A model generated the notes under the pieces. That model saw only the letters and a program-made list of their open reading frames with translations, ran no database searches and was not told the origin of the DNA. From the NCBI GenBank assembly GCA_044336965.1, contig JBIIOL010000001.1:1-32872 (forward strand): a stretch of 32,872 bases of DNA. Direction: 5' to 3'. The DNA comes from Pirellulales bacterium (GTDB lineage: Bacteria > Planctomycetota > Planctomycetia > Pirellulales > UBA1268). Positions 1,215-17,434 of this stretch are shown in pieces. Every line of letters begins with the position of its first letter. The first letter of the stretch is position 1. The position numbers and the translations under genes were made by a program.

Positions 1215-1256
1215 GGCAGGATCCTTTGGAAAGAGGGTCTGAGCGGGCAGCAGGTG

Positions 1257-2147
1257 TCAGACATGAAACTCCACGAGCCCCGGGCACGGTCGATGCGAGC
1301 GAATCGAGTCGGTCGTGAATACACCGTCGAGCCGACCTTCGTCGTCTCGGCAGGCCAGCAGGCGGTCGAGGCCGTTCGAAAAGATGCCGTGGGTCACGTA
1401 GAGGTGCACCGCCGCTGCGCCGTGATGGCGCAGCATCTTGGAAAGTTCCAGGAACGTACGGCCGCCGTCGCAGATGTCGTCCACGATCAGGCAGGTCTGG
1501 CCTGCCACATCGCCGCCGGCCTCGAGTTGCATGCCGATGATCGCACCGCGGTTCGCCACGTCCCTGGTCTTCGTCGCCTGGACGGTGGCAACGTGAGGAC
1601 ACCGGCTCTCCAGTGCCCGGAGGATGGCGTGCACGCGCTTGGCGGCTCCGGCGTCGGGGATGACGACCCGCGTCGCCCCGCTCTGCGCGACCGCCTCGGC
1701 AACGTGCTCGTGGATTGGCAGCGGACGGCACCGGTCGATCACGGCGGCAGTGACGTCGGAATGGGGATCGAGCACCAGGACCTCACCGAACCCGCATGCG
1801 TTGATGACATCGGCCAGAACGCGGATTGAGAGCGGGTCGCCGGGGACCATCCGCCGGTCTTGCCTCGCGTAAGGCACGTATGGCATGAACAGGTCGAGCA
1901 CGACCCCGGGGGCCCCCCCGCGGATCGCATCGGCAGTCAGCAGGACAGCCAGGAGATCATCCGACGAGTTGACCCGGTGGGCGACCAGAGCACGCCGACT
2001 CTCCTGGGGCAGGTCGGGGAACTGAACATGGACTTCGCCCCCTGCGAATACATGCCGCCGTGGTCGGATGACCCGCGTCGAAGGGATGCTGCGGCAGATC
2101 GCCGGTTCCCAATCGGGGTCGATCACCGAGATCAAGTCCCAAGTCAT
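1257..2147 (-). CDS. Ribose-phosphate pyrophosphokinase-like protein (Prs paralog, 297 aa). It sits directly upstream of nadV and is co-oriented with it.
   Basis: Carries MPYVPYARQDRR (Prs ...YARQDRR motif) and LIVDDICDGGRTFLELSKML...YVTHGIFS (PRPP-binding DDxxDTGGT loop). The N-terminus diverges and lacks the canonical housekeeping Prs start. A 42-nt gap separates it from the nadV start. Confidence 0.75.
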   Translation of the reverse strand: MTWDLISVIDPDWEPAICRSIPSTRVIRPRRHVFAGGEVHVQFPDLPQESRRALVAHRVNSSDDLLAVLLTADAIRGGAPGVVLDLFMPYVPYARQDRRMVPGDPLSIRVLADVINACGFGEVLVLDPHSDVTAAVIDRCRPLPIHEHVAEAVAQSGATRVVIPDAGAAKRVHAILRALESRCPHVATVQATKTRDVANRGAIIGMQLEAGGDVAGQTCLIVDDICDGGRTFLELSKMLRHHGAAAVHLYVTHGIFSNGLDRLLACRDDEGRLDGVFTTDSIRSHRPCPGLVEFHV

Positions 2148-2170
2148 CGTGGGCGGTTCCTTTCTCTGCC

Positions 2171-2185
2171 GTGGGGCTTCCCCAC
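2171..2185. promoter_or_regulatory. Perfect short hairpin gtgggg-ctt-ccccac in the 5' leader of the prs-like/nadV unit (also within the divergent intergenic region).
   Basis: 6-bp inverted repeat with a 3-nt loop, read directly. Function unknown. Confidence 0.25.
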
Positions 2186-2400
2186 ACAGCATCGTCTCTA
2201 TCCCTTTTTCGAGGGATCCTACCCCGCTGTTTGCCGCGTCGCAACGCTGCCCCACAAAACGGTTTCTGCGACCGCTCCCCCCCAGTAAACGGGCACCGTG
2301 CCCGCGTTCGCTCCCACCGTCCAGCCAGGAAGCGTTTTTGCAAGACCCCTTCACCGTGTTATTCTTCCCCCCTAAGAGAGAGCGAATTTCTGCGCCATCG

Positions 2401-2406
2401 AGGAGG
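2401..2406 (+). promoter_or_regulatory. Shine-Dalgarno AGGAGG, 5 nt upstream of the GTG start at 2412.
   Basis: Seen in sequence: cgaggaggtttccGTG. Confidence 0.6.
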
Positions 2407-2411
2407 TTTCC

Positions 2412-4466
2412 GTGTCCCCCCACAACGTCATCTGGCTGGTTGCAGCGCTGGCCGCGGTCGTGCCCCTGCTCCTGTTTTTGTTTCTGTTCCTCGTCAACGT
2501 CGGCTCCGACCGAATCGCCATCCTTGAGCGTCGCTTCCTCGGCAAGGAACTCGCTCCCGGCCGGGTATTCGCCCTGGCGGGCGAGGTCGGATCGAAGGCG
2601 GCCTATCTCGCACCGGGACTGCACCTCGTCGCATGGCCAATCGTCCGAGTCGTCGGCAAGCCCCGGTTCGTCACGATCGGCGCCAACGAACTCGGTATCG
2701 TCGAGGCGACTGACGGAGCGCCTCTTCAGTCGGGCCGAATCTTCGCCGATGATCCGGCCGGTGAACACCACGGCGATTTCCAGCGGCCGGTGGATTTTCT
2801 CACGCACGGGGGCATCCGCGGCAAGCAGTTGCGATTCCTGACGAACGGCACCTTCAAGATTCATCCGGGGCTCTTCAAGGTGACCAAGATTGCGAAGACG
2901 GTCGTGCCGGAGGGCAAGATTGGCGTGATCACGGCCGCCGACGGCGCTCCATTGGCCCCGGGCAAATTGCTCGGCCGCAGCGTGCAGGATCATGACAACT
3001 TTCAAAAGGCCGAGTCCTTTCTTCTGCAAGGCGGCCAGAAGGGGCCGCAAATGGATTTCCTGCGGCCCGGCACCTACAACATCAACACGGAGATCTTCGC
3101 CGTCGAGATCCGCGACGCGGTCCAAGTCGATGAGAACGAAATCGGAATCGTCGACGCGCGCGACGGACTCGCTATGGCCCGCAGCGACGTCGTGGTACAT
3201 ACTCCGGCCGAGGTCAACAGTTTCCAGGACGGGCAACTGTTCCTTGACCACGGCGGGAATCGCGGCCCCCAGGAAAACATCCTCACGCCGGGCACGTACT
3301 ACATCAATCCGTACATGTTCGCCGTATCCAAGCGCAAGCAGACCCTTGTGCGGCAAGGCGAGGTGTCCGTCCTGATCTCGAACATCGGAAAGGATCCGGC
3401 CGAGTTCACCGACACGGCGAAACAACCACACGCCGACGACTCCGGAACGCGGCACGTCGTTCCGAAGGGCTTCCGCGGCATCCAGCGAGAGGTGCTCGGC
3501 CCCGGCGCCTACAACATCAACCCGCTGGCATACTCGGCGATCATCATCCCCACCACGACTCGCTCCGTCGACTGGAGTGAAGAGAAGACGAAGCCTGCCG
3601 AGGCGGCCGCCTTCGACCCCTTCCAGGTCGTGTCACACGACGGCTTCGAGATGAAGGTGGAGGTCCGATGCCAGTACCGCATTCTGCCCGAGAACGCTCC
3701 CTACATGGTGCAGAAGATTGGCTCGATCGACGAACTCGAGAAAAATGTGATCCATCCGCAGATAGACGGCATCTTTCGCGCACAGGTTTCGCGATCCCCC
3801 GCGATCGCCTACCAGCAGAACCGCGCCGAAGAGCAGAAGGCCGCGGAGGAGGCGGTCCGGCAGGATCTCTCAAAATACCGGGTGGAGGTGGTGTCCGTCA
3901 TGATCACCAACATCCACCTGCCCGAGGCGCTGATGAAGACCACCCAGCAGAAGAACCTCGCCGAGCAGGAAAAGTCGATGTTCGACGCCAAAAAAGATGC
4001 CGAACAGAGGCGTATCGAATATGAAAAAACGAAGGCGGAGGCCGACGCGCAGGTCAGGATCATCACAGCCGAGTCGGGCATCAAGGTGGCACAGCACGAG
4101 GCCCGCCAGGTCGAGGAACGGGCGAAGGGCGAGGCCTCGCGGGTGCGGATGATTGCCGAGGCCGATGCCGCCAAGACCAAGCAGGTGGGCGACGCCGAGG
4201 CGAGCGTGGTGCAGTCAAAGGGCGAGGCGCAGGCAAAGGCGTATCGCGATCAAGTCGACGCCCTGACAGCACAGGGGGTCACCACCGTCGAAGTCATGAA
4301 GGCCATTTCGGCAGCGGGCCTCAAGATCACACCCGACATTCTCGTGGCGGGCGGAGGGGAATCCACTGACACCGGCGGACTCGTCAGCGTGTTGCTCGCA
4401 CAACTCGTGCAGAGAAAGCAGATCGACACGAACCCGTCTGTGGCTGTTCCCGGAACCATCCCCTAG
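2412..4466 (+). CDS. SPFH/band-7 (flotillin-like) membrane protein of 684 aa. It has an N-terminal transmembrane helix, four internal ~90-aa repeats and a C-terminal coiled coil.
   Basis: N-terminal hydrophobic stretch VIWLVAALAAVVPLLLFLFLFLV. Repeats of G(G)xRGxQxxxLxPGTYxINPxxFxV occur four times. The SPFH-like core reads YRVEVVSVMITNIHLPEALMK. The E/K/A/Q-rich C-terminus is flotillin-like. Confidence 0.65.
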   Translation: MSPHNVIWLVAALAAVVPLLLFLFLFLVNVGSDRIAILERRFLGKELAPGRVFALAGEVGSKAAYLAPGLHLVAWPIVRVVGKPRFVTIGANELGIVEATDGAPLQSGRIFADDPAGEHHGDFQRPVDFLTHGGIRGKQLRFLTNGTFKIHPGLFKVTKIAKTVVPEGKIGVITAADGAPLAPGKLLGRSVQDHDNFQKAESFLLQGGQKGPQMDFLRPGTYNINTEIFAVEIRDAVQVDENEIGIVDARDGLAMARSDVVVHTPAEVNSFQDGQLFLDHGGNRGPQENILTPGTYYINPYMFAVSKRKQTLVRQGEVSVLISNIGKDPAEFTDTAKQPHADDSGTRHVVPKGFRGIQREVLGPGAYNINPLAYSAIIIPTTTRSVDWSEEKTKPAEAAAFDPFQVVSHDGFEMKVEVRCQYRILPENAPYMVQKIGSIDELEKNVIHPQIDGIFRAQVSRSPAIAYQQNRAEEQKAAEEAVRQDLSKYRVEVVSVMITNIHLPEALMKTTQQKNLAEQEKSMFDAKKDAEQRRIEYEKTKAEADAQVRIITAESGIKVAQHEARQVEERAKGEASRVRMIAEADAAKTKQVGDAEASVVQSKGEAQAKAYRDQVDALTAQGVTTVEVMKAISAAGLKITPDILVAGGGESTDTGGLVSVLLAQLVQRKQIDTNPSVAVPGTIP

Positions 4467-4533: not shown

Positions 4534-5496
4534 TTGAACGACACCACGAACAAGCGGTCATTGAAGACGATGCCATCGGAGTCTCGCAACGTGAAGGCCT
4601 TGGTCTGCCGCAGGGGACGCGTGACGTGCGAATCAAGAATCGCACCGGAGGTCGGACATCCAACAGATGTCCGCATTCGTGTCACCTGTGCTGCGATTTG
4701 CCGAACGGATGCCTACGTCGCCAGCGGAAGGATTCACGTGTCCGACGGCAGGGTGCCGGGGCACGAATTCACTGGAATCGTGGACTCCGCGGGCGCGGCG
4801 GTAACACGGGTGCGGCCCGGTGACCGAGTCGTGGTGAACCCGCTGATCGCCTGCGGCGACTGCCCGAGTTGCCGGAGCGCCCGGCCCCATCAATGTGTCG
4901 CTACGCGTTTTCTGGGGATCGATTGTGACGGCGCATTTGCAGAACTCGTCGTCGTTGACGATTCCATGGTGCACGTGCTGCCGGCAGGCATTCCCGACAC
5001 CGTGGGCGCCTACGCCGAGCCGCTTGCTGCGACGATGGCCGTTCTCGACGCTGACTTGCCGCCGGGGGCGAGCATCGCTGTCACGGGTACCGGCCGCATC
5101 GCCACCCTGACGGAATTCATCCTCCGAGAGTTTGGCCACGATGTCCACGCGGCCACCAGCGACGCCAACGAATCTGACGTGGTCGTCGAAACGAATTTGT
5201 GCTCGTCGAATCTCGAGTCGACCATTCGACTGCTGAAACCCGGCGGATTGCTGGTCATGAAGAGCCGTCAGCCCGAAACGGTCGAGATCTCTCCACTGGT
5301 ATGCATCCCCTGGCGGCTCAGGATCGAGTGCGTGTATTACGCGGACTTCGGCCTCGCTCTCGGACATCTCGCGCGATGGTCGCCGCAACTGCAACGATTC
5401 GCCGGAAGCGAGTGGCCACTTGCCCAGCACGAGCAGGCATTCGCCGAGGCATGCGAAGACGAGACGGCGAAGGTCTACTTTCGCCCCAACGGGTGA
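4534..5496 (+). CDS. Zinc-dependent alcohol dehydrogenase (MDR superfamily). The start is uncertain: TTG at 4534 or ATG at 4570.
   Basis: Contains GHEFTGIV (catalytic Zn His/Glu) and CGDCPSC (structural Zn cysteines). A KALVC motif lies near the N-terminus. Confidence 0.75.
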   Translation: MNDTTNKRSLKTMPSESRNVKALVCRRGRVTCESRIAPEVGHPTDVRIRVTCAAICRTDAYVASGRIHVSDGRVPGHEFTGIVDSAGAAVTRVRPGDRVVVNPLIACGDCPSCRSARPHQCVATRFLGIDCDGAFAELVVVDDSMVHVLPAGIPDTVGAYAEPLAATMAVLDADLPPGASIAVTGTGRIATLTEFILREFGHDVHAATSDANESDVVVETNLCSSNLESTIRLLKPGGLLVMKSRQPETVEISPLVCIPWRLRIECVYYADFGLALGHLARWSPQLQRFAGSEWPLAQHEQAFAEACEDETAKVYFRPNG

Positions 5497-5503
5497 ACTG
5501 AAT

Positions 5504-7309
5504 ATGTGTGGAATCGCAGCCATCCGCACACCTCGTCGGGACGGGATTGGGCACGCCTTGAGCGCCGCACTGACGGCTATGCACCACCGGGGGCCCGATG
5601 ACACCGGCGTCTACGTTTCTTCACGGGCGGACGTGGGCCTCGGATCCGCGAGACTGGCCATCATGGATCCTGCCAATGGTCATCAACCCGTTGCAAACGA
5701 GGATCGCGGCATCCATGCCGTCGTGAACGGCGAGTTCTATGAAAGTGACCGTCTGCGAAAAGCACTCGAAGACAGGGGGCATCGCGTCCGCACTGGCAGC
5801 GACAGTGAACTGCTCGTGCACCTCTACGAGGAACACGGCACGGGATGCCTGCGATTCCTCCGGGGTGAGTTCGCGTTCGTGTTGCTCGACGAATCGGCCA
5901 ACCGGCTCTTCCTCGCCTGCGATCGCTTCGCCATCAAGCCGCTTCACTACGCACGATCCCGTGGCGGTTGGATCATCGCTTCGGAAATCAAGGCGCTCAT
6001 TGCCATGGGGATGGAACCCCGGTGGGACCTGGCCGCCTTGCAGCAGTCCCTTGCATTCCAGTACGGAAAGCCGGGCTCGACGCTCTTCGAAGGTGTCAGG
6101 CAACTGCGTCCCGCCCACGCGATGGTCCTGGATGGTGATGATTGCAAGGAGTTCGTCTACTGGGAGCCCTGCTTTGAACCTGATCCGACCATCACCGCCG
6201 AGGCGATCGGTGCCGCCCTTCGTGAGGCGGTACACCTGCGACTGCGGGCCGACGTCCCCATGGCATGCACGCTGAGCGGCGGATTGGACTCCAGCGCGGT
6301 TGCGGCGATATCGGGTATTCGTGACTGTTTCTGCGTTCGGTTCGACGCCCCTGAATACGACGAAGGCCCGCAGGTGTTGGAGGATGGTCCGAGTGATGTG
6401 CGAATCCATCAGGTCCCCGTGACGCGTCGCGATCAGGTGATGCATCTGGAAGATGCGGTGCGACACAGTGAGGGATTGGCCATCAACGGCCAGTTGGTCG
6501 GCAAGTTTCTCTTGTCTCGCGCCATCCGGGACGCCGGGTTCAAAGTGGTCCTCGCGGGCGAAGGGGCTGACGAAGCGTTTCTCGGCTACGCGCACCTCCA
6601 GCAGGATTACACCGACACGCCACCGCAGATTGCGTTGCAGCAGGGCATCATGCTGCCCGCTCCGGGAGAGTCTTTTCCCTGGCGCATGCCGACGTGGCTC
6701 GAGCGTGTTCCCACATTCCTGCAGGCGAAACTGGCCACGGGCCGTCATGCAGCCGCATTGCTCGCCCACCCGCCGAACCCGCAGACGATCCTCGACGACT
6801 GCCTCGGCGGCATCGACTTGCCGTCGGGCCCATTCGTGCGCCGGAGCGCGTGGTTGTGGACCCGCATGGCGCTGGCGGGCTACATTCTTCGTACGCTTGG
6901 CGACGGTGCCGAGATGGCCCACTCCGTCGAGGCCAGACTCCCATTCCTCGATCACGAACTCTTCGCGGTCGCCGCGAGGATTCCGCCGCCGGCACTCCTC
7001 GACCATGAACATACAAAGCTGGCGCTTCGCGAGGCGTTGCGTGGGATCGTGCCGGAGACGGTCCGCACGCGCAAAAAGCATCCCTTTCTCGCCCCACCGC
7101 TCGACGGCGATCAGGCAGTCGACGATTTCGTCCAGGATACGCTCGCCAGCACGGCATGTCGCGAACTGCCGCTCTTCGACCATCGAGCCGTTCGACGATG
7201 GGCTGCTGCGCGATTCCGGCTTCCCGATGCCGATCGCCATCGGCTGGATCCGGTTCTGATGCAACTTCTCACCGCAACGCTGCTCCAACGATGCTTTCGC
7301 ATGACATGA
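5504..7309 (+). CDS. Asparagine synthetase-type class II glutamine amidotransferase (AsnB family) with an N-terminal Cys nucleophile.
   Basis: Starts MCGIAAI. Carries SGGLDSS (PP-loop ATP pyrophosphatase motif) and the typical AsnB core FVLLDE/IKPLHY. The ATG is at 5504, 7 nt after the ADH stop. Confidence 0.85.
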   Translation: MCGIAAIRTPRRDGIGHALSAALTAMHHRGPDDTGVYVSSRADVGLGSARLAIMDPANGHQPVANEDRGIHAVVNGEFYESDRLRKALEDRGHRVRTGSDSELLVHLYEEHGTGCLRFLRGEFAFVLLDESANRLFLACDRFAIKPLHYARSRGGWIIASEIKALIAMGMEPRWDLAALQQSLAFQYGKPGSTLFEGVRQLRPAHAMVLDGDDCKEFVYWEPCFEPDPTITAEAIGAALREAVHLRLRADVPMACTLSGGLDSSAVAAISGIRDCFCVRFDAPEYDEGPQVLEDGPSDVRIHQVPVTRRDQVMHLEDAVRHSEGLAINGQLVGKFLLSRAIRDAGFKVVLAGEGADEAFLGYAHLQQDYTDTPPQIALQQGIMLPAPGESFPWRMPTWLERVPTFLQAKLATGRHAAALLAHPPNPQTILDDCLGGIDLPSGPFVRRSAWLWTRMALAGYILRTLGDGAEMAHSVEARLPFLDHELFAVAARIPPPALLDHEHTKLALREALRGIVPETVRTRKKHPFLAPPLDGDQAVDDFVQDTLASTACRELPLFDHRAVRRWAAARFRLPDADRHRLDPVLMQLLTATLLQRCFRMT

Positions 7310-8061
7310 AGACGACCGAACCGTGGTGGGAGTCCCTGTACGACGATCACGTCGCCGACGTGCTGTTGGAACGAACAACTCCGTCGGAGATCAGCCTCGC
7401 CACCGACTTTCTGATGGAGGTTCTCGACCTCCGCGAAGGTTCGATGGTACTCGATCAATGCTGCGGCACGGGGCGGATTGCGTGGAGTCTCGCCGCACGC
7501 GGAATATCCGTGCTGGGAGTGGACATCATCCCTTCCTACATCGAGCGGGCACGCCGTCGCGATACGATCGTGCCGCTCACGCCCCGCTTCGAGACGGCGG
7601 ATGCGTTCGAATTCAGTGCCAGCCCTTTCCGCGATGCCGCCTTCAACTGGTGGACGAGCTTCGGCTATGCCCGGGATGACGCAGACAACCTGCGGATGCT
7701 CCGTCGCGCGAGGGAGTCGATCCGCTCGGGTGGATCCTACGTTGTCGACTTCATGAACATACCGGGCATCCACAGGCATTTCCTGCCTCGGGTGACGACG
7801 TGCGCCGGCGACGTGACGCTCGTGCGAGACACCACGCTCGACCTTGCCGACAACGTGATGCGCAAGACGTGGACGTTCACGTTCGGCGACGGTCGCCAGA
7901 TCGTCCGTCGCAGTGCGGTGCGACTGTACGACCCGGCCGCCTTGCACAGCCTGTTCCTCGAGGCGGGTTTCGACACCATCCGACTCTACGGCGACGTCGA
8001 TGCGTCGCCACTGACCGTTGAAAGCCCGCGGTGCATCATCTACGGGAGAAATCCGCCTTGA
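7291..8061 (+). CDS. Class I SAM-dependent methyltransferase. An alternative ATG at 7306 would overlap the asnB stop as ATGA.
   Basis: VLDQCCGTGRIA is a motif I glycine-rich SAM-binding loop. The fold length is ~250 aa. The start overlaps asnB. Confidence 0.7.
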   Translation: MLSHDMKTTEPWWESLYDDHVADVLLERTTPSEISLATDFLMEVLDLREGSMVLDQCCGTGRIAWSLAARGISVLGVDIIPSYIERARRRDTIVPLTPRFETADAFEFSASPFRDAAFNWWTSFGYARDDADNLRMLRRARESIRSGGSYVVDFMNIPGIHRHFLPRVTTCAGDVTLVRDTTLDLADNVMRKTWTFTFGDGRQIVRRSAVRLYDPAALHSLFLEAGFDTIRLYGDVDASPLTVESPRCIIYGRNPP

Positions 8062-8084
8062 ACACGTCTTTCTTCCAGCCGGAG

Positions 8085-8900
8085 ATGCCGTCCGACTCCC
8101 GCACCACCCGAGACCGGATCTTCGCTGGTGCCGTCTACTTGAAATCAGCCGGGCCGGCATCTCTCGCTTTCGTCGCCAGCGTGCTGCAACTGATGCGGGA
8201 AAGACTCGAAACGGACGACATTCGCACGGCCCACGACAGATGGAGTGCCGACGAGTGGTTCACGCGTATCGGATCGCTTCGCCGGACCATATACGTCGAG
8301 CCGGAGTTTCAATCGCATGTTCGAGCCGTCGTGGCGGAGTGCGGGTTCGATACCGAACGCGTTGTCTTCGATCCGGCGCGGTTGCGTGTCGTACAGCCCG
8401 GCGGCTATCGCAACCCGCTTGCCGCACCGGTGTACTACCCGCACCGAGACACGTGGTATGCCCATCCCCAGTGCATGATCGTGGGGTGGCTGCCACTGCA
8501 CGATCTCGCACCCGAGGAAACCTTCGAGTTTTACCCCGACTGTCTTTCGAGGCCCGTGTCAAACGACTCAGAACGCTTCGACTACAACGACTGGATCAAG
8601 GACGGTCCGTCGCTGAAGATCGGCTGGCAGGAGCGGGACTCAGGGGTGACCGCCCGATACCCTCGGGCGCTGGAGACGACGGTGCCGGAGCGGGCGGAGC
8701 GATTCTCGTGCCATGCGGGTGACACACTTGTGTTTTCCGGCGCTCACTATCACCGGACGCTGCCTCACGACCTGCTGCAGACACGCTACAGTCTCGACTT
8801 CCGAATCGTAGACCGGGATGACATCGCCGCTGGTCGGGGCGCACCGAATGCGGACAATCGTTCACGGGGGACCACGCTGAATGACTATGTGGGGTTCTGA
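8085..8900 (+). CDS. PhyH-like Fe(II)/2-oxoglutarate-dependent dioxygenase (putative hydroxylase).
   Basis: YYPHRDTWY (HxD) together with a distal GAHYHRT His gives a 2-His-1-carboxylate facial triad arrangement. GGAG lies 4 nt upstream of the ATG at 8085. Confidence 0.55.
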   Translation: MPSDSRTTRDRIFAGAVYLKSAGPASLAFVASVLQLMRERLETDDIRTAHDRWSADEWFTRIGSLRRTIYVEPEFQSHVRAVVAECGFDTERVVFDPARLRVVQPGGYRNPLAAPVYYPHRDTWYAHPQCMIVGWLPLHDLAPEETFEFYPDCLSRPVSNDSERFDYNDWIKDGPSLKIGWQERDSGVTARYPRALETTVPERAERFSCHAGDTLVFSGAHYHRTLPHDLLQTRYSLDFRIVDRDDIAAGRGAPNADNRSRGTTLNDYVGF

Positions 8901-11502
8901 GTTCGAGAATCCGTTCGTTCTTGCACTGTCTCGCGTGGTCGCGACCCACGGGATGAAGACTGCTATCGAGACCTCCGGTAGCCGGCGTCTGTGCTACCGA
9001 GAGTTGTGGGACGCGGCCATCGCCATGAGCGGCACCATGCGCTCGCACGGCATCGCTGATGGCTTCTGCGTGGCCGTTGTGTTTCCGCGTTCACCGGAGT
9101 TCGTGACGGCCCTGATCGCCTGCTGGATGTGCGGTGCGGTAGCACTCCTTCTGGACTCCGACCTGCCGCACGCACGGCGTCGCAAGATCCTGCGGCAGGT
9201 GCGTCCCCACTTCGTACTCGACCGGAACGGATGCCGTCCCTCCCCCTTCCCGAACGAGACGGCCTTTCCGGCCAGGCAGGCGCCCGCGTACCTGATCTAT
9301 ACCTCGGGATCTACCGGGAGACCGAAGGGCGTGCTGGTGTCCCATACCGGTCTCATGCCGGTGCTCCAGGCGCAGATCGAAACGTTCGAGCTCGATGACG
9401 AGAGCCGATGTCTCTGGGTGCATGGCACTGGCTTCGATGCTTCCCTGTCGGACATCGGCACCACTCTCCTCGCAGGGGCGACGCTGTGCATGGAGGAGGA
9501 ACCGCTGCGAGATTTGGCCGTGCTCGGTCGCTGGGGAATCACACACGTCGACTTGCCGCCGTCGCTCCTGCCGTGGCTCGACGAACGCGCACGCCTGCAT
9601 ACGATCGTGATCGGTGGCGAAGTATGCCCGACCGCAGTCGTGCGTCGGTGGGCGGAACGGACGAATCTCGTGTGCGTGTACGGACCCACGGAAGCGACGA
9701 TCTGCACGAGCATGATTCGCTGTGGCCCGGACTGGGATCGGCCTTGGATCGGGACCCCGTTGCCGGGTGTCACGTATTCCGTACACGCCACTGACGGAAG
9801 CGAAGCTTCGACTGGAGAACTGTGGATCAGCGGATCGACGGTGGCCCTGGGTTATCCGTGGGAAACGGAACTGACTGCGGAGCGATTCGTGAACGCGGGC
9901 CGTACGTTCCGCACCGGTGATCTCGTCAGGCGTCATGGTCGCGAGTCGTACGAGTTTCTCGGCAGACTGGACCGACAGTTCAAGCTCAACGGACGACTGA
10001 TCTGTCCGGAAGAGGTCGAACTGGCGCTGCTCGAAACGGGACTGGTGCAACGCGCGCGGGTTCTGCGCTACGGTCGGGGCACCCATGCCGCGTTGGGCGC
10101 GAGCGTGGAGTCCACCGTCGGTTCCGAAATCCTCGGTGCGAGGCTGGGCCAGACACTCCCCTCGTGGATGGTCCCGACGTGCTGGGACACGACGAAAGCG
10201 ATTCCAGAGACCGCCAACGGCAAGCCGGATGACGCATCCATCCGCGAACGCCTCGCCTGGCGGGAGACCTGCGAAACGGAACCAAACGACGGCGATGAAA
10301 GGGCCATCTGCCGCCTGATGGCAAAGTGCTTGCAGCGCACCACGGTGGCTGCCCATGAAGATTTCTTCACCGACCTCGGTGGGGACTCGCTCGCCGTGGT
10401 GGCCTTCACGTCTCTGGCCGCCGGAGCCGGTCTGGAAATCACCCCGGAAGCACTCTCTCTGGGTCGCACTGCGTCGGGGGTCGCGGCCATGATGCGTGCG
10501 CACACAACCGAGGCCCGTGCTCCGCACGAGTTCGCAGCCGATGTCGAATTGCCGTGGACGTTCCCGAATCAGCAGTCCGAAGCTCCCCGCCGGCTCCTGC
10601 TCACGGGTGCAACTGGCTTCCTGGGTTCGATCCTCTCCACGACACTCGACGGCGAGGTGCTGCCGCTGTCGAGAGCCAACGGCGACGTTGGCAGGCCGTT
10701 CTTCGGGTGGAATGAAGCGGATTGGCGGGCGCATGCCGACACCGTCGACACGGTTGTTCATCTCGCGGCGGATGTCCGTCTCTTCGCACCGTACAGCGAG
10801 TTGGCACGGACACAGGTCGCGGGTACACGTGAAGTCCTGCGATTCTGCGCGACCGGGCGACCCAAGACACTCCATTACGCCTCGACCCTTTCCGTATTCG
10901 TCGATGCCGACCCGCGGGACAACCTCTGTCGGGAATCGGATGGACGCCGCCAGGTGTCGTGCCTTTACGGCGGATATGCCCAGTCAAAATGGGTGGCGGA
11001 ACAACTCGTGCTGCGCGCCATGGAGAGTGGATTGCGGTCGGGCATTCATCGTCTCGGATTGTTGGCACCCTGTACGCGGACCGGCGTCCGCCCGCGGAAC
11101 GACTGGTTCACACTGGCACTTCCAGGGCTCCTGGAGCGATCACGTGATGCGGACCCTGAACTGGCGTTTGACCTCACCCCGGTCGACTACGCAGCCCGAG
11201 TGATGGCGTGGCTCATCAACAAGTGCCACGAAGGCATTTTCCACATCGCGGCGCCACGACCGACGACACTGCGCGACCTCGAGTCCACTGGTCTGCGTCC
11301 ACGTCGTGGACACGACAGTCCGGTGACTGAACTCGCCGCGAGTGGAAAGCATCGGTCGCTCGGCGTTTTGAAGTGCACGCACACTCGATTCGATCGCACG
11401 CGGACAGAGCAGGCTCTCGCCGGGAGCGGGATTGTTTTTCCGGAAATCGACAATACCTATCTACAGACGTGCCTCCAGCACGCTGAAAGTGGTGTCGAAT
11501 GA
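8881..11502 (+). CDS. NRPS-like single-module enzyme with adenylation, peptidyl-carrier (T) and terminal thioester reductase (R) domains (A-T-R). Predicted to be an acid- or amino-acid-reducing enzyme that forms an aldehyde.
   Basis: A-domain cores: LIYTSGSTGRPKGV (A3), YGPTE (A5), GELWISG (A6), FRTGD (A7), NGK (A10). Carrier: FFTDLGGDSLAVV (phosphopantetheine Ser). R domain: LLTGATGFLGSIL (Rossmann) and YGGYAQSKWVAE (YxxxK). It overlaps the upstream gene by 20 nt and the downstream gene by ATGA. Confidence 0.85.
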   Translation: MTMWGSEFENPFVLALSRVVATHGMKTAIETSGSRRLCYRELWDAAIAMSGTMRSHGIADGFCVAVVFPRSPEFVTALIACWMCGAVALLLDSDLPHARRRKILRQVRPHFVLDRNGCRPSPFPNETAFPARQAPAYLIYTSGSTGRPKGVLVSHTGLMPVLQAQIETFELDDESRCLWVHGTGFDASLSDIGTTLLAGATLCMEEEPLRDLAVLGRWGITHVDLPPSLLPWLDERARLHTIVIGGEVCPTAVVRRWAERTNLVCVYGPTEATICTSMIRCGPDWDRPWIGTPLPGVTYSVHATDGSEASTGELWISGSTVALGYPWETELTAERFVNAGRTFRTGDLVRRHGRESYEFLGRLDRQFKLNGRLICPEEVELALLETGLVQRARVLRYGRGTHAALGASVESTVGSEILGARLGQTLPSWMVPTCWDTTKAIPETANGKPDDASIRERLAWRETCETEPNDGDERAICRLMAKCLQRTTVAAHEDFFTDLGGDSLAVVAFTSLAAGAGLEITPEALSLGRTASGVAAMMRAHTTEARAPHEFAADVELPWTFPNQQSEAPRRLLLTGATGFLGSILSTTLDGEVLPLSRANGDVGRPFFGWNEADWRAHADTVDTVVHLAADVRLFAPYSELARTQVAGTREVLRFCATGRPKTLHYASTLSVFVDADPRDNLCRESDGRRQVSCLYGGYAQSKWVAEQLVLRAMESGLRSGIHRLGLLAPCTRTGVRPRNDWFTLALPGLLERSRDADPELAFDLTPVDYAARVMAWLINKCHEGIFHIAAPRPTTLRDLESTGLRPRRGHDSPVTELAASGKHRSLGVLKCTHTRFDRTRTEQALAGSGIVFPEIDNTYLQTCLQHAESGVE

Positions 11503-12488
11503 CAGCGCCAGCGGCGAAAACAGGAATGCTGTTGGGCAAGTTTCTGCCGCCGCACTGCGGGCACCTTTATCTTGGCGCCTTTGCGAGGCATTTCGTCGAA
11601 GATCTCACCATCGTCGTAGGGACCCTGGAACGCGAGCCGATCCCGGGCAGACTGAGATTCGAGTGGATGCGTCAACTGTTTCCCGGGGTGAACGTCGTGC
11701 ACCTCGCCGAGGAACTGCCGCAGGATCCGTCGGAGCATCCGGACTTCTGGCGGCTCTGGCAGACCTCACTGCTGCGAATCCTGCCCTCTCCCCCAGACGT
11801 CATTTTCGCGTCCGAACCGTACGGGGAGAAACTTGCAGAGGTGCTCGGAGGCCGGTTCATCCCCGTGAATCCTGATCGCAGCATCCATCCTGTCAGCGGC
11901 ACGGCTGTTCGCGAGAACCCGTGGGCGCACTGGGATCAACTTCCGCCTCCCGTGCGTGCCTACTATGCTCGACGAGTGTGCGTCTTCGGTCCGGAATCCA
12001 CAGGCAAGTCGACCCTCGTCCGGCAACTCGCTGAACACTTTCGCACGGTCGCCGTCCCGGAATATGCCCGCACGCTCCTCGAATGGCGGCGTGGGCGGCT
12101 AGACCCGGAGGATTTGCCTGACATCGCCCGTGGGCAGGCGGCCAGTGAGGACGCGCTCGCACCCTTGGCGAATCGCGTTGTCTTCATGGACACCGACCCG
12201 CTGGCGACGGTGGTATGGTCCGATTTTCTTTTCGGGTCCGTGGACCCGGAGGTTCAGACGCTCGCACGATCACGGACGCCGGACCTGTATCTGCTGACGG
12301 ATGTCGACGTGCCGTGGATACCCGATCCGGTGCGGTACCTGCCGGATGAGCGAGCGAGCTTCCTCGCCCGCTGCGAGGAGGCACTCACATCGCGAAACCG
12401 ACGCTTCGTCAGGATCAGTGGAAGTTGGAACGAACGCTTCGCGATTGCCGTTCAAGCCGTGGAGTCGCTCGGGATCGCGGCACCTTGA
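11499..12488 (+). CDS. NadR-type bifunctional NMN adenylyltransferase / ribosylnicotinamide kinase that lacks the N-terminal HTH domain.
   Basis: GKFLPPHCGHLYL (HxGH nucleotidyltransferase motif) and SGTAVR (SxTxxR). Then VFGPESTGKSTL (Walker A) and VFMDTD (Walker B-like), arranged as in the NadR RNK domain. The start overlaps the A-T-R stop as ATGA. Confidence 0.75.
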   Translation: MTAPAAKTGMLLGKFLPPHCGHLYLGAFARHFVEDLTIVVGTLEREPIPGRLRFEWMRQLFPGVNVVHLAEELPQDPSEHPDFWRLWQTSLLRILPSPPDVIFASEPYGEKLAEVLGGRFIPVNPDRSIHPVSGTAVRENPWAHWDQLPPPVRAYYARRVCVFGPESTGKSTLVRQLAEHFRTVAVPEYARTLLEWRRGRLDPEDLPDIARGQAASEDALAPLANRVVFMDTDPLATVVWSDFLFGSVDPEVQTLARSRTPDLYLLTDVDVPWIPDPVRYLPDERASFLARCEEALTSRNRRFVRISGSWNERFAIAVQAVESLGIAAP

Positions 12489-12817: not shown

Positions 12818-13390
12818 ATGGACGCCCACGGCAGGCACTGGAGCAGCGTGCCGTCGTGCCCGCGGCTTTGCTGCCAGACCGTTTCGAGCGGCGTCACCGA
12901 CTATTCCCGCCGTCCGGCCGGCTCGTCATACGTGCACTGCATCGAACGTTGTGGAGCCTGCAGCACCGCAGGGATCATGTCGAGAAAATCGCTTCGTTGG
13001 ACGAGGGCCATAATTGTCGCCTCAGCTTGAAGAGTGCCGCGACCCGTGAGGTCATGAACGCCGTGATCACGAAGCCGTCGTGCGACTCCGTCTCTCTTTA
13101 AGCTACCACCAGCACTTTCGACGAATCCAACCTGCGTACTGCCAGCAACTCCCCCGAAGTGCCCTCGAGTTGAAAACTTGCCGCCACGGGCGACAGTACA
13201 TCCCATACCGAACACGACTGGCTTCGTCCCCATTCAGTCTGGGCAAGGTGTTCCGGCTGGACCGGTGCGGTCGCACCGGTCGTAACGGTTTAACCTCGCG
13301 TTTCGGGCAATCTGGTTGCTCCGACCGCGCCTGCCTGCGGACGCTCCGTGGACCGCTGCCGAAAGAAAAGAAGCGGGCTCTATCGCCCGC

Positions 13391-13397
13391 AAGGAGG
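13391..13397 (+). promoter_or_regulatory. Shine-Dalgarno AAGGAGG, 6 nt upstream of the ATG at 13404.
   Basis: Seen in sequence: gcAAGGAGGcgatcgATG. Confidence 0.6.
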
Positions 13398-13403
13398 CGA
13401 TCG

Positions 13404-14141
13404 ATGCGCAAGAGAGCATGTGGGCTAGTCGCAGTGCTGGCGATGATCATGGTGGTGATGGTGGCGGATGTCGCTTCGGCCAAGCCCTTCGGCCATATCT
13501 GGGAGAAGCGGCGGGCCGAACTCTATGCCCGGCTCTCGCGGGATGTCTCCGTCCGCGTACAGTCCCGCGTCAGCGCCGCGAAGACAGAGCTTCAGGACTC
13601 CCTCGACACGCGGTTTGCCGAGGAGGCAGCCAAGCTCGAGGCGAAGCTGGCGACCGGCTCGAGGGAGCTCGACGACCGCTTCGGCAACGAGATTCGCTCG
13701 CTCAACGAGTCGTTCGCGGCCGAATCGAAGGCGCTCCGCGAACGGTTCGACCTGCAGCTCGCGGTGCTCAAGAAGAAGATCGACGCCGAACTCGCGGAAG
13801 CCGGGCGGAAAGCCGCGGAGCAGGCGGTCGCTGAATCGAAACAGGCGGCGGAGAAGGCGGCGGAGCGGGTCGATGTCGAATCGAAGAAGGCCGTGGAGCG
13901 GGTCGATGCGACGGCGAAGGGCATCGAGGAAAAGACGACCGCCGAACTGAAGAAGATCGAGCAGCGATCGGTGGCGGAAGTCGAGAGGGTGATGGCGGCC
14001 GCCGAGAGGAAGGTGGACGGCGAGGTCGCGAAGCTGAAGGCCCGCCTCGACGAGCAGGTTGCCGGCATCGCCAAGCAGCTGCAAGAGCAACAGTCCACAA
14101 ACGCCACGCCGGTCGAAGCCAAGGACGGCGAGGCGGAGTAG
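13404..14141 (+). CDS. Secreted coiled-coil protein with apolipoprotein-like amphipathic repeats. Has a signal peptide and is A/E/K-rich.
   Basis: MRKRACGLVAVLAMIMVVMVADVASA is a signal peptide. The rest is almost entirely helical heptad/11-mer repeats (…AEEAAKLEAKLATGSRELDDRFGNEIRSLNESFAAESKALRERF…AVERVDVESKKAVERVDATAKG…). The long 13080 ORF is an upstream extension artefact. Confidence 0.6.
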   Translation: MRKRACGLVAVLAMIMVVMVADVASAKPFGHIWEKRRAELYARLSRDVSVRVQSRVSAAKTELQDSLDTRFAEEAAKLEAKLATGSRELDDRFGNEIRSLNESFAAESKALRERFDLQLAVLKKKIDAELAEAGRKAAEQAVAESKQAAEKAAERVDVESKKAVERVDATAKGIEEKTTAELKKIEQRSVAEVERVMAAAERKVDGEVAKLKARLDEQVAGIAKQLQEQQSTNATPVEAKDGEAE

Positions 14142-14846: not shown

Positions 14847-15536
14847 TCACCCCCGGCCCGGGCGGCGGCGGGCCATGATCTCGCGGCGGCTCGACACGTG
14901 CAGCTTCTCGTAGATCCGCTGCACGTAGGTGCCCACCGTCGATGTCGAGATCCCGAGCCGCTGGGAGATCTCCTTGTAGGAAAATCCCTCCACGAGCAGT
15001 TCGAGCACCTGCTGCTCACGGGACGTGAGCGACTCTTCGTCCGGGGATTCAGCTGGCAACCGTGCGGAGGATGTGCCCGCTACCTCAGCGGCCTCGCGGC
15101 TGCGAAATGTCTCGATCACCTTCCGCGCGATCGTGCGGCTCATCGGCACGCCGCCGGCCCGGATCTCCCGGATCGTCTCAAGCAGCCGCTCCGGGAGCAC
15201 CGGCTTCACGAGATAGCCGTGGGCGCCGGCGGCCAGCGCCTGAAACGTGGTGTCGGGGTCCTGATAGACGGTCACCATCAGGATCTGTGTGCCGGGAAGC
15301 TTTGGCGCGAGCATCTTCACGCACTCAACTCCCGTGGTGTCGGGCAGGTTCACGTCCATGATCACCACGTCGGGTGCGAGCGCGGGAATGCCGGCCACGG
15401 CCTCCGCCCCCGTCGCAAATGCCCCGAGGCAACGGCACTCGGTGGAGCTTTCCAGAACGTCGACAAAAGTCTGCCGCAGCCGAGCGTCATCCTCAACCAC
15501 CGCCACCCGAATCGTGCCCACTTGGATCGCGGTCAT
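14847..15536 (-). CDS. NarL/FixJ-family response regulator (REC plus LuxR-type HTH), copy 1.
   Basis: VAVVEDD…DVVIMDVNLPD (REC acidic pocket) and LTSREQQVLELLVEGFSYKEISQRLGISTSTVGTYVQRIYEKLHV (LuxR HTH). ATGA overlap with the kinase upstream. Confidence 0.85.
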   Translation of the reverse strand: MTAIQVGTIRVAVVEDDARLRQTFVDVLESSTECRCLGAFATGAEAVAGIPALAPDVVIMDVNLPDTTGVECVKMLAPKLPGTQILMVTVYQDPDTTFQALAAGAHGYLVKPVLPERLLETIREIRAGGVPMSRTIARKVIETFRSREAAEVAGTSSARLPAESPDEESLTSREQQVLELLVEGFSYKEISQRLGISTSTVGTYVQRIYEKLHVSSRREIMARRRPGRG

Positions 15537-17407: not shown

Positions 17408-17434
17408 GCCAGTTCCGCCGGACGACACGCAACC

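Follow-up and report, generated by a model that had tools for sequence, protein, structure and literature searches.

Six plus-strand genes at positions 4570-12488 of the window, i.e. the whole stretch of 32,872 nucleotides of Pirellulales DNA that was analysed, form a conserved operon that at least 130 bacterial species, spread over about eight phyla, have in common. They encode, in this order, a Zn-dehydrogenase, an AsnB-type amidotransferase, a SAM methyltransferase, a Fe/2OG oxygenase, an NRPS-like A-T-R protein and an HTH-less NadR-like protein. To our knowledge, NadR has been described solely as an enzyme of NAD salvage. We give slightly less than an even chance to the reading that this cassette is a horizontally mobile biosynthetic operon wired to NAD metabolism, with the NadR-like protein acting as a pathway enzyme and not in housekeeping salvage.

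The open reading frames, domains and motifs listed for the six packed genes in a preliminary description of this DNA could all be verified, and the genes are separated by one 7-nt gap followed by overlaps of 4, 4, 20 (or 14) and 4 nt. For the Zn-dependent medium-chain dehydrogenase (4570..5496, plus strand, 308 aa; ADH_N domain and motifs), ATG 4570 is most likely the start rather than TTG 4534, as 308 aa equals the length of the homologue in Propionivibrio. Its stop at 5496 lies 7 nt ahead of the start at 5504 (MCGIA) of the AsnB-type glutamine-hydrolysing amidotransferase (5504..7309, plus strand, 601 aa; GATase_7, GATase_6 and Asn_synthase). An ATGA overlap at 7306-7309 joins the latter to the class I SAM-dependent methyltransferase (7306..8061, plus strand, 251 aa; Methyltransf_25/31/11), for which the upstream ATG 7291 is a possible alternative start that would lengthen the overlap to 19 nt. 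The oxygenase, assigned by motif and fold to the PhyH structural class of Fe(II)/2-oxoglutarate enzymes (8058..8900, plus strand, 280 aa), probably starts at TTG 8058 and not at ATG 8085, because its homologues are 280 aa long and align from MNTSFF; this creates a 4-nt TTGA overlap with the methyltransferase stop, and the same form of the junction is found in Prosthecobacter and Propionivibrio. The A-T-R gene (8881..11502, plus strand, 873 aa; AMP-binding, PP-binding and NAD_binding_4) overlaps the oxygenase gene by 20 nt if read from ATG 8881, or by 14 nt if read from ATG 8887, as in the gene call of a 94%-identical homologue of 871 aa (P0001); the 14-nt overlap also occurs in Prosthecobacter. 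A last ATGA at 11499-11502 links it to the gene of the HTH-less NadR paralogue (11499..12488, plus strand, 329 aa; AAA_28 and alignment to NadR). Most junctions proposed earlier (the 7-nt gap, the ATGA overlaps and the 20-nt overlap) were confirmed in this way, while the gap between 8061 and 8085 was replaced by the start at TTG 8058. An Rfam scan of the window gave no riboswitch or other RNA match, and scans for promoters and terminators gave counts no higher than those in shuffled controls.

Since both the junction pattern and the gene set recur across phyla, the tight packing goes beyond chance. Scanning 185,579 species genomes, we found 131 stretches that encode a relative of the oxygenase, and all six genes are present together in 23 of the 31 fully covered loci, in about eight phyla and among unrelated flanking genes. 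The synteny search, which had been set beforehand as the test able to refute an operon, strongly favours one. A chance neighbourhood of six unrelated genes packed together in a single genome, for which only the dense gene content of the window speaks, is refuted by this recurrence, and we regard its probability as negligible. Verrucomicrobiota, Betaproteobacteria and other Planctomycetota retain the identical gene order within unrelated flanks (e.g. Prosthecobacter, L001; Propionivibrio, L002; Stieleria maiorica, L086), and a permuted one occurs in Myxococcota, Legionella, Nocardia, Acidobacteriota and others. Across loci the dehydrogenase and AsnB-type genes are adjacent in 49 of 50 cases, the methyltransferase and oxygenase genes in 63 of 72, and the A-T-R and NadR-like genes in 41 of 52. 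The NadR-like protein is the best conserved across phyla (73-77% identity, compared with 53-69% for the other five). Relatives encoded on plasmids (Sinorhizobium and Aminobacter replicons) were rejected as members of the same system, their oxygenase homologues being only 26-32% identical; the one such locus inspected (L089) holds none of the other five genes. A full-text literature search, limited to papers outside paywalls, found no account of the gene set. The earlier view of an uncharacterised small-molecule operon is supported by the synteny.

The A-T-R protein consists of an adenylation domain (about 8881-10260), a carrier domain (about 10303-10488) and a thioester reductase domain (about 10588-11400), and no condensation domain was found in it. 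The reductase core described earlier is confirmed in each part. All A-domain cores are present (TSGSTGRPKG, FDAS, YGPTE, GELWISG, GRLDRQFKLNG and NGKPD; AMP-binding domain in Pfam, 189 bits), and the residues Asp235 and Lys517 typical of alpha-amino acid substrates correspond to D186 (FDAS) and K448 (NGKPD). The carrier serine lies in GGDS (aa 500-503, 10378-10389; PP-binding 25.9 bits, cut-off 20.8), and the R domain carries TGATGFLG at aa 575 and YAQSK at aa 699 (NAD_binding_4, 120 bits). The domain models TIGR01746 (159 bits, cut-off 213) and TIGR01733 both match below their cut-offs, and the PDB matches are NRPS A domains and the R domain of MxaA. Domain order, core motifs and the missing condensation domain are shared with single-module reductases (the MxcG terminal module, AusA module 2, Lys2, the fungal glycine-betaine reductase ATRR and carboxylic acid reductases), from which one would expect, by analogy, reductive release of the loaded acid as aldehyde or alcohol. 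However, the protein stays far under every equivalog cut-off, e.g. 325 against 2300 bits for MxcG, its best full NCBIfam model; Lys2, the alpha-aminoadipate reductase, matches over the R domain only (128 against 1030 bits) and was rejected. We know of no kinase or nucleotidyltransferase partner for any of these reductases. The specificity code extracted from the window is DASDVGVICK (DASD[VI]GV[VI]CK in the family), unchanged in 58 of 60 sequences including distant fused variants; among the codes known to us, that of alpha-aminoadipate reductase included, it has no counterpart, the nearest presumably being those for Lys (DAESIGSVCK) and Gln (DAQDLGVVDK). In one homologue (P0104) methyltransferase domains are fused to the A-T-R protein.

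The AsnB-type protein carries the N-terminal Cys (MCGI), HRGPD, NGEFY and the PP-loop SGGLDS, with TsnB9 hydroxyamidotransferase (7ylz) and AsnB (1ct9) as best PDB matches. The retained Cys nucleophile and a score above the TIGR01536 cut-off (361.1 against 267.1 bits) mark it as a true glutamine amidotransferase. A place among the beta-lactam and carbapenam synthetases (BLS, CarA), in which this glutaminase nucleophile is lost, was rejected, since Cys2, HRGPD and NGEFY are retained. The methyltransferase has the SAM motif VLDQCCGTG; its best PDB match is a putative methyltransferase (9ri2), and the next include small-molecule N- and O-methyltransferases (CcbJ, GenN, PEAMT and RebM). A role in SAM aminocarboxypropyl transfer was considered and found no direct support. 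The window oxygenase gave no Pfam match (PF05721 included) and no NCBIfam match; among its homologues, at least 960 in number, PF05721 hits a few. Its facial triad (H129-x-D131 and H232) and 2OG-binding R243 are invariant in 33 sequences, and the AF2 model (pLDDT 93.2) retrieves PhyH-class folds exclusively among the top Foldseek matches (probability 1.0, TM 0.4-0.5: PtlH, SptF, FtmOx1, ThoJ, EvdO2, SnoN, PHYHD1, SyrB2, KanJ and MysH). On motif, predicted structure and double-stranded beta-helix fold, the earlier PhyH-like assignment is upheld, with the protein as a distant branch of the PhyH-type Fe(II)/2OG class.

The dehydrogenase had been proposed to reduce the released aldehyde. The enzyme is present with intact catalytic Zn ligands (C40, H65-E66 and E150, the latter in AEPL 149-152), a structural Cys4 Zn site (CGDCPSCRSARPHQC) and the nucleotide-binding motif GTGRIA, and it is 55-57% identical in Prosthecobacter and Propionivibrio. 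Judging by its EPL motif and its best matches (Tdh, IolM and GatD in NCBIfam, all far below cut-off, e.g. Tdh 108 against 380 bits), it is predicted to be of the polyol/threonine-dehydrogenase type, which does not fit neatly with an aldehyde-to-alcohol step; action on a secondary alcohol or ketone appears at least as likely. ADH_N matches with 92 bits and ADH_zinc_N not at all, the cofactor domain is short, and the best PDB alignments (4ej6 and Tdh 2dq4) cover only the N-terminal ~190 aa.

The NadR-like protein combines an NMNAT-like nucleotidyltransferase domain (about 11499-11948; HCGH, SGTAVR) with an RNK-like P-loop kinase domain (about 11949-12485; GPESTGKS), and HCGH, SGTAVR and Walker A are conserved across the cassette family. 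It aligns over its full length to the NadR structures of E. coli (8x7f), H. influenzae (1lw7) and the NARP3 phage Bas30_86 (9x6f), with which it shares the two-domain architecture and the HxGH, SGTxxR (ISxT-type) and Walker A motifs. No HTH match was obtained, the protein beginning 8 residues ahead of the GKF motif; phage and Lactococcus NadR likewise do without this domain. It falls below both NCBIfam NadR cut-offs (TIGR01526, 270.8 against 341.15; NF005988, 136.4 against 201), and TIGR00125, which it also matches, is a nucleotidyltransferase superfamily model. In the NMN-contacting beta3-alpha5 loop (PQDPSEHPDFW in the window), PQxPxEHPDFW replaces xPxYP(N/H)GW in 60 cassette sequences, i.e. 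the window and 59 loci, whereas E. coli, H. influenzae and Bas30_86 NadR retain YP(N/H)GW. The NMN-binding loop of Bas30_86 holds E80, P84, Y86 and G89, and mutating E230 or D275 abolishes its conversion of NR to NAD (PMC13464706). Equivalents of E230 and D275 are conserved in the cassette proteins; because these and the catalytic motifs are retained, the enzyme could still act on NR and NMN, and the loop differences could be lineage drift inside an old NadR subfamily.

The genomic setting sets this protein apart from canonical NadR: it was always met together with an A-T-R gene and never with pnuC, which was not seen at any cassette locus inspected. All five close homologues sampled lie in cassettes and none adjoins pnuC, so that the gene, as had been supposed, is a genuine if unusual member of the cassette. 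In a distant subfamily the A-T-R protein carries a fused NadR-type kinase domain, and an AAA_28 domain stands at the C terminus of 7 of the best 120 A-T-R homologues. At one locus (L003) the fused kinase is intact (GPESTGKST), while the separately encoded NadR-like protein has lost a working Walker A and part of its kinase domain.

These findings bear on the idea that we are dealing with an ordinary small NRPS-like cluster, in which NadR only boosts the local NAD(P) supply to the two reductases that use nicotinamide cofactors, or is co-regulated with these. Hydroxylation, methylation and amidation would then tailor a product derived from an amino-aldehyde, e.g. an amino alcohol, a pyrazine, a piperazine or a cyclic imine. 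Clusters built from one A-T-R module plus tailoring enzymes are a recognised type, MxcG and AusA are the best NCBIfam models, and both the R domain and the ADH require NAD(P)H. However, a gene for cofactor supply would not be expected to be the best-conserved member, to be confined to the cassette or to be translationally coupled to the A-T-R gene in most loci, nor would one expect a kinase-R domain fusion beside a decaying stand-alone copy. We know of no other NRPS-like cluster with NadR, and the literature search found none. We consider this explanation quite improbable.

The link to pyridine-nucleotide metabolism suggested earlier is borne out by NrtR, NadV and NadM-Nudix, which recur beside the cassette. 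NrtR, with its NUDIX and NrtR_WHD domains, is encoded within about 3.4 kb upstream in 8 loci and directly adjoins the first cassette gene in 7 of them, in operon or divergently; tandem palindromes in three of these intergenic regions are candidate operators. NadV and NadM-Nudix lie in the cassette gene string in four loci; nadV shares one string with the A, R and NadR-like genes in L071, L074, L075 and L083, and in L074 NadM-Nudix, a canonical NMNAT, stands in one string with the NadR-like gene. No nrtR was found in the window. Its nadV (NAMPT; 12-1214, minus strand, clipped by the window start; 39% identity over 411 aa to the NadV of L074 by tblastn) and a divergent prs-like gene (1257 to about 2200, minus strand; Prs domains in the ORF 1257-3455) lie about 2.3 kb upstream and outside the conserved cassette. 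The pair noted earlier is real, but it is absent beside the closest cassette relatives, and the tie to NAD runs through the other neighbours. The cassette loci share NrtR, nadV and nadM-Nudix with NrtR-controlled NAD salvage operons (nadV-prs, nadM-Nudix, pnuC-nadR), but differ from these in that five of the six cassette genes are not known to take part in NAD metabolism. The neighbours would be compatible equally well with a plain NAD-supply role.

This raises the possibility, which we hold to be unlikely, that the NadR-like protein truly works as an NR kinase/NMN adenylyltransferase and the other five enzymes form an NrtR-controlled route making or recycling a pyridine precursor, e.g. a ring formed from an amino-aldehyde whose nicotinate-type carboxylate is amidated before NadR completes NAD. 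It would agree with the full-length similarity to NadR, the conserved catalytic motifs and E230/D275 equivalents, the position of NrtR next to or inside the operon, the shared strings with nadV and nadM-Nudix and the nearby nadV/prs of the window; AsnB-type amidation also resembles in its logic the step of NadE (NAD synthetase), which is an amidation. On the other hand, the conserved set contains no phosphoribosyl- or ribosyl-transferase, so that the cassette itself could not turn a new base into a nucleoside. The sporadic spread of the 131 stretches looks accessory rather than core, and the hosts are mostly large-genome bacteria, which usually have standard NAD pathways. NadM would be redundant with the NadR-like enzyme in one string, the kinase-R domain fusion is hard to explain with imported NR as substrate, and pnuC is missing from the loci seen. 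A de novo route to the pyridine ring was considered as well, and direct support for it was not found.

If the cassette is instead a dedicated biosynthetic operon, the A domain would adenylate a single specific alpha-amino acid, polar or basic, and load it onto the carrier, and the AsnB-type enzyme would install a carboxamide on a second carboxylate with ammonia from glutamine. The oxygenase may hydroxylate, and the methyltransferase methylate, the substrate or the tethered intermediate; both steps would be accessory, because distant cassette variants lack both genes. The R domain would free the thioester reductively as amino-aldehyde or alcohol, and the polyol-type Zn-dehydrogenase would interconvert alcohol and carbonyl. 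In the NadR paralogue, the kinase domain could then phosphorylate the resulting primary alcohol and the NMNAT-like domain adenylylate the phosphate, giving an NMN/NAD-like, ADP-linked metabolite by the logic of NR to NMN to NAD. Alcohols are converted to NDP-linked compounds in several such series (NR/NMN/NAD, riboflavin/FMN/FAD, pantetheine/4'-phosphopantetheine/dephospho-CoA and choline/phosphocholine/CDP-choline), and pairs of a kinase and an HxGH nucleotidyltransferase share the logic of the last two proposed steps, as an analogy only. More specifically, and as a rather doubtful proposal, the product might be an ADP-linked, NAD-like dinucleotide in which an amino alcohol with a carboxamide takes the place of nicotinamide riboside; the six-gene form would add a hydroxyl and an N-methyl or cationic nitrogen, and the NadR paralogue would have changed its substrate. 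No transferase, exporter or resistance gene hinting at the fate of an ADP-linked product was seen in the cassette.

Were this the case, an acyclic or aza-sugar mimic of NAD or ADP-ribose could serve as a new cofactor, regulate NrtR-type sensors or inhibit NAD-consuming enzymes, e.g. NADase toxins and defence systems, and such a product would explain the tie of the operon to the NAD regulon. With a dedicated NadR paralogue, the succession of kinase and adenylyltransferase known from NAD, FAD and CoA synthesis would reach a new metabolite, and NRPS-like chemistry would gain a new class of product. That NrtR, NadV and NadM keep recurring beside the cassette suggests a role of the product in NAD homeostasis or in NAD conflicts, which are now central in phage defence and toxin biology. 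A known anti-phage defence system was rejected, as PADLOC gave a generic match of the methyltransferase only (mad2, E = 1e-12); of the other five proteins, four had no match and the NadR-like protein one at the reporting threshold (E = 0.0099), which is not significant. No phage homologue of the oxygenase was found.

Among the variants, one encodes a Metallophos phosphoesterase within the cassette, and Archangium violaceum has a reduced form with only a 290-aa protein lacking a Pfam match and the A-T-R and NadR-like genes nearby. The full six-gene set is present in cultured strains with complete genomes, namely Stieleria maiorica Mal15, Limnoglobus roseus, Sulfidibacter corallicola M133 and two Nocardia.

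By ORF listing, translation and domain scans of the window, six genes were defined on the plus strand: a Zn-dehydrogenase of 308 aa with an ADH_N domain (ADH, 4570-5496), an AsnB-type amidotransferase of 601 aa (5504-7309) with an MCGIA start and a score of 361 bits against TIGR01536, above the cut-off, a SAM methyltransferase of 251 aa matching Methyltransf_25/31/11 (7306-8061), an oxygenase of 280 aa without family match (8058-8900), an A-T-R protein of 873 aa with AMP-binding, PP-binding and NAD_binding_4 domains (8881-11502), and a NadR-like protein of 329 aa with an AAA_28 domain (11499-12488), which scores 270.8 bits against TIGR01526, below the cut-off of 341. The six genes with these domains, and all motifs quoted in the preliminary description, are present at 4570-12488 and at the expected positions of the proteins. 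The tight packing claimed there also holds (in order, a 7-nt gap and overlaps of 4 nt (ATGA), 4 nt (TTGA), 20 nt and 4 nt (ATGA)), except that the oxygenase start has to be moved from ATG 8085: since the homologues are 280 aa long and align from an MNTSFF N-terminus, and the same 4-nt overlap with the methyltransferase occurs in the called genes of two related loci, L001 (Prosthecobacter sp., Verrucomicrobiota) and L002 (Propionivibrio MAG, Betaproteobacteria), translation probably starts at TTG 8058. For the A-T-R protein, ATG 8887 may be an alternative start; the protein would then have 871 aa, like its 94%-identical homologue P0001, and the overlap would be 14 nt, the same as in L001.

A search with the A-T-R protein returned homologues at 50-62% identity. 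L001 and L002 both carry all six genes in the order of the window within wholly different flanks, and their contigs repeat the 4-nt and 14-nt overlaps; identities to the window proteins are 55-57% for ADH, 63-65% for AsnB, 58% for the methyltransferase, 68-69% for the oxygenase, 53-55% for A-T-R and 73-77% for the NadR-like protein. We scanned 185,579 species, each represented by a single genome, with aligned oxygenase homologues and found 131 stretches encoding an oxygenase relative; 80 loci were fetched. They come from Verrucomicrobiota, Planctomycetota, many Myxococcota, Alpha-, Beta- and Gammaproteobacteria (Legionella among them), Acidobacteriota (Sulfidibacter corallicola M133 and one Holophagae MAG), Actinomycetota (two Nocardia isolates), one Candidatus Xenobia MAG and others. 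In S. corallicola the six genes are contained in 1.2016-1.2224 Mb of NZ_CP071793. Gene content of the fetched loci was counted after tblastn with the window proteins. The possibility that the six genes belong to separate neighbourhoods and never co-localise elsewhere is rejected: of the 31 loci that extend at least 9 kb to either side, 23 have all six inside 9.5 kb. The order of the window is the commonest (22 loci), followed by ADH-AsnB-ATR-NadR-MT-oxygenase (9 loci), and certain pairs stay together: ADH-AsnB in 49/50, MT-oxygenase in 63/72 and ATR-NadR in 41/52 loci. The six genes very probably form one conserved pathway with the NadR paralogue as a working member.

The NadR-like protein is the best conserved of the cassette in the comparison with L001 and L002, and its N-terminal NMNAT-like half reaches up to 83% identity between phyla. 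The best 120 matches in a search with this protein all show at least 58% identity, and the five homologue contexts sampled (Stieleria maiorica Mal15, Limnoglobus roseus, Archangium violaceum, an ENA 2-Mb contig and Phycisphaera sp. RhM) were all cassettes. The Stieleria cassette occupies about 6.3619-6.3705 Mb of CP036264.1. Compared with canonical NadR (E. coli, H. influenzae and phage Bas30_86), the cassette proteins keep HxGH, SGTxxR, the Walker A motif and residues equivalent to E230 and D275 of Bas30_86. The window protein scores below the curated NadR cut-offs and lacks the canonical NMN loop: xPxYP(N/H)GW in the beta3-alpha5 loop is replaced by PQxPxEHPDFW, a replacement shared by the 60 cassette sequences that were compared. 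In Bas30_86 the NMN- and NAD-contacting residues E80, P84, Y86 and G89 sit in this loop (PMC13464706). The NadR-like gene is thus very probably an integral, specialised member of the cassette.

Variant loci rearrange the same parts. Seven of the best 120 A-T-R homologues are about 1100 aa long and carry a C-terminal AAA_28 domain; L003 and L005, two loci of the form ADH-AsnB-(MT)-[A-T-R-kinase], continue with a separate NadR-like gene. In L003 (10001-14292) the kinase domain fused to the A-T-R protein is intact (GPESTGKST), whereas in the stand-alone NadR-like protein downstream the Walker A is destroyed (GGSPDARAN) and the kinase domain truncated. The kinase function has thus been transferred to the reductase, and L003 cleanly exemplifies the passage of a domain between partners. 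An Acetobacteraceae locus, L074 (11023-17882, -), encodes consecutively on one strand a nadM-Nudix protein, nadV, a stand-alone A domain, an R protein and a NadR-like protein, with MT-oxygenase divergent from this string and no ADH or AsnB nearby; a small carrier-protein gene may be concealed in the 318 nt that separate A from R. The string therefore places two NMNAT-type enzymes in one run of adjacent genes, and the same tblastn pattern was seen in three further loci (L071, L075 and L083; two Acetobacteraceae, one Burkholderiaceae). In one cassette a Metallophos phosphoesterase gene is inserted between methyltransferase and oxygenase (L090, 4735-5223), which hints at phosphoester intermediates. 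A reduced form in Archangium violaceum CP069396.1 (L088, 6127-11023) combines A-T-R and NadR-like proteins with a 290-aa protein without Pfam match, possibly the oxygenase, and has no ADH, AsnB or methyltransferase within 10 kb. On plasmid C of Sinorhizobium americanum (L089, 1341996-1362781) a 32%-identical oxygenase homologue stands alone, accompanied by none of the other five genes, so the oxygenase family extends beyond the cassette.

As to the chemistry, the earlier assignment of the oxygenase as PhyH-like Fe/2OG enzyme is borne out despite its missing family match: H129-x-D131, H232 and R243 are invariant in the homologue alignment, and the AF2 model (pLDDT 93.2) has only PhyH-class Fe/2OG enzymes as its best PDB fold matches, among them SyrB2, whose substrates are carrier-tethered amino acids. 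SyrB2-type halogenases are the basis for reading the triad Asp as a mark of hydroxylation rather than halogenation; because this Asp is present, hydroxylation would be expected. The AsnB-like protein retains the Cys nucleophile and the PP-loop and should therefore amidate a carboxylate, with glutamine as the source of the ammonia. The dehydrogenase shows polyol/threonine-dehydrogenase signatures and a shortened cofactor domain, and the nearest solved relatives of the methyltransferase are small-molecule N- and O-methyltransferases. In GrsA numbering, the A domain of the window has the ten-residue code DASDVGVICK. Of 60 family members, 50 carry D-A-S-D-[VI]-G-V-[VI]-C-K and 8 more deviate at a single position; the distant fused variants have this code too, which argues for a single substrate throughout the family. 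The nearest codes are presumably those for Lys (DAESIGSVCK) and Gln (DAQDLGVVDK), and Asp278 together with the small Ser239 suggests a long side chain with a cationic or amide end. A text search of the literature for the code gave no match.

Among the clustered extra ORFs around cassettes, one family recurs, NrtR (Pfam NUDIX + NrtR_WHD). In 8 loci it is encoded upstream of the cassette at a distance of no more than about 3.4 kb. In 7 of these it is immediately adjacent to the first gene, co-directionally in L013, L043, L057 and L058 and divergently in L023, L060 and L065; in L010 the distance is about 3.4 kb. A palindrome scan revealed 19-23-bp palindromes, two copies each, beside nrtR in three regions: AAGAGT-N7-ACTCTT (L023, 3497-3790) and ATAGTGGC-N5-GCCACTAT (L065, 6083-6300), both between nrtR and the first cassette gene, and AAGTGT-N7-ACACTT upstream of nrtR (L010, 2150-2430). 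These are candidate NrtR operators; the window has no such site ahead of its ADH gene. It does contain, 2.3 kb upstream of the cassette, nadV (NAMPT; 12-1214, -), truncated at the edge of the window, and a divergent prs-like gene whose Prs-domain matches are all weak (1257 to about 2200, -). The pair could be an ordinary PRPP synthetase and NamPRT salvage pair or a NARP1-like ADPR-pyrophosphokinase/Namat pair. The NAD-gene association thus recurs in several independent forms (NrtR, the nadV/nadM-Nudix string of the L074 type, and nadV/prs in the window). The link to NAD metabolism put forward in the preliminary description gains from these recurrent neighbours, but the nadV/prs pair cited there is absent from the closest relatives, L001 and L002. 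No pnuC occurs among the neighbour families of cassette loci.

With NAD-supply genes as neighbours and every catalytic residue retained, the paralogue could also be a true NadR, the cassette feeding NAD synthesis. These two points speak for this explanation, but it is weakened by the conserved set, which contains no ribosyl- or phosphoribosyl-transferase, by the sporadic distribution and by the redundancy of NadM and NadR-like proteins, and we regard it as unlikely. We tentatively suggest instead, with somewhat greater confidence, that the NadR paralogue acts on the pathway's own alcohol. Considering gene set, conservation, intact motifs, kinase fusion and NAD-regulon neighbours together, the most economical reading is a four-part pathway, whose individual steps and product we infer throughout. 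An alpha-amino acid would be loaded and reductively released by A-T-R; AsnB would add an amide to a second carboxylate; in the full form, oxygenase and methyltransferase would tailor the compound and the dehydrogenase would adjust an alcohol or carbonyl; and the new primary alcohol would be phosphorylated and then adenylylated by the NadR paralogue. This last part would follow the same logic as NR to NMN to NAD, riboflavin to FAD and pantetheine to dephospho-CoA. Should an ADP-linked NAD mimic prove to be the product, the cassette would make a new metabolite class.

The component parts belong to known families, and the A-T-R protein falls within the NRPS-like enzymes. PADLOC, Rfam, plasmid and phage searches gave no match accounting for the gene set, and literature searches no description of it. 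The cassette is an NRPS-like reductive-release cluster set apart by its dedicated NadR paralogue and its NAD-regulon wiring.

The remainder of the window encodes sulfatases, PSD/PSCyt and DUF1552 proteins, a content typical of Planctomycetota. An ORF at 66-1829 (+), antisense to the nadV/prs-like genes and without family match, is probably spurious. A SPFH/Band_7 gene (2412-4466, +) lies between nadV/prs and the cassette, and downstream an ORF (13080-14141, +) encodes a coiled-coil, apolipoprotein-like protein with a hydrophobic stretch about 115 residues in; neither is conserved beside related cassettes. At 14847-18085 (-) a LuxR-type response regulator is paired with a HisKA_3 kinase. The kinase ORF overlaps a sulfatase ORF (17435-19261, +) by about 650 nt, and one of the two starts must therefore be over-extended. 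At around 16000 the GC content increases from about 0.62 to about 0.69 and remains high downstream, the cassette lying within the lower-GC part.
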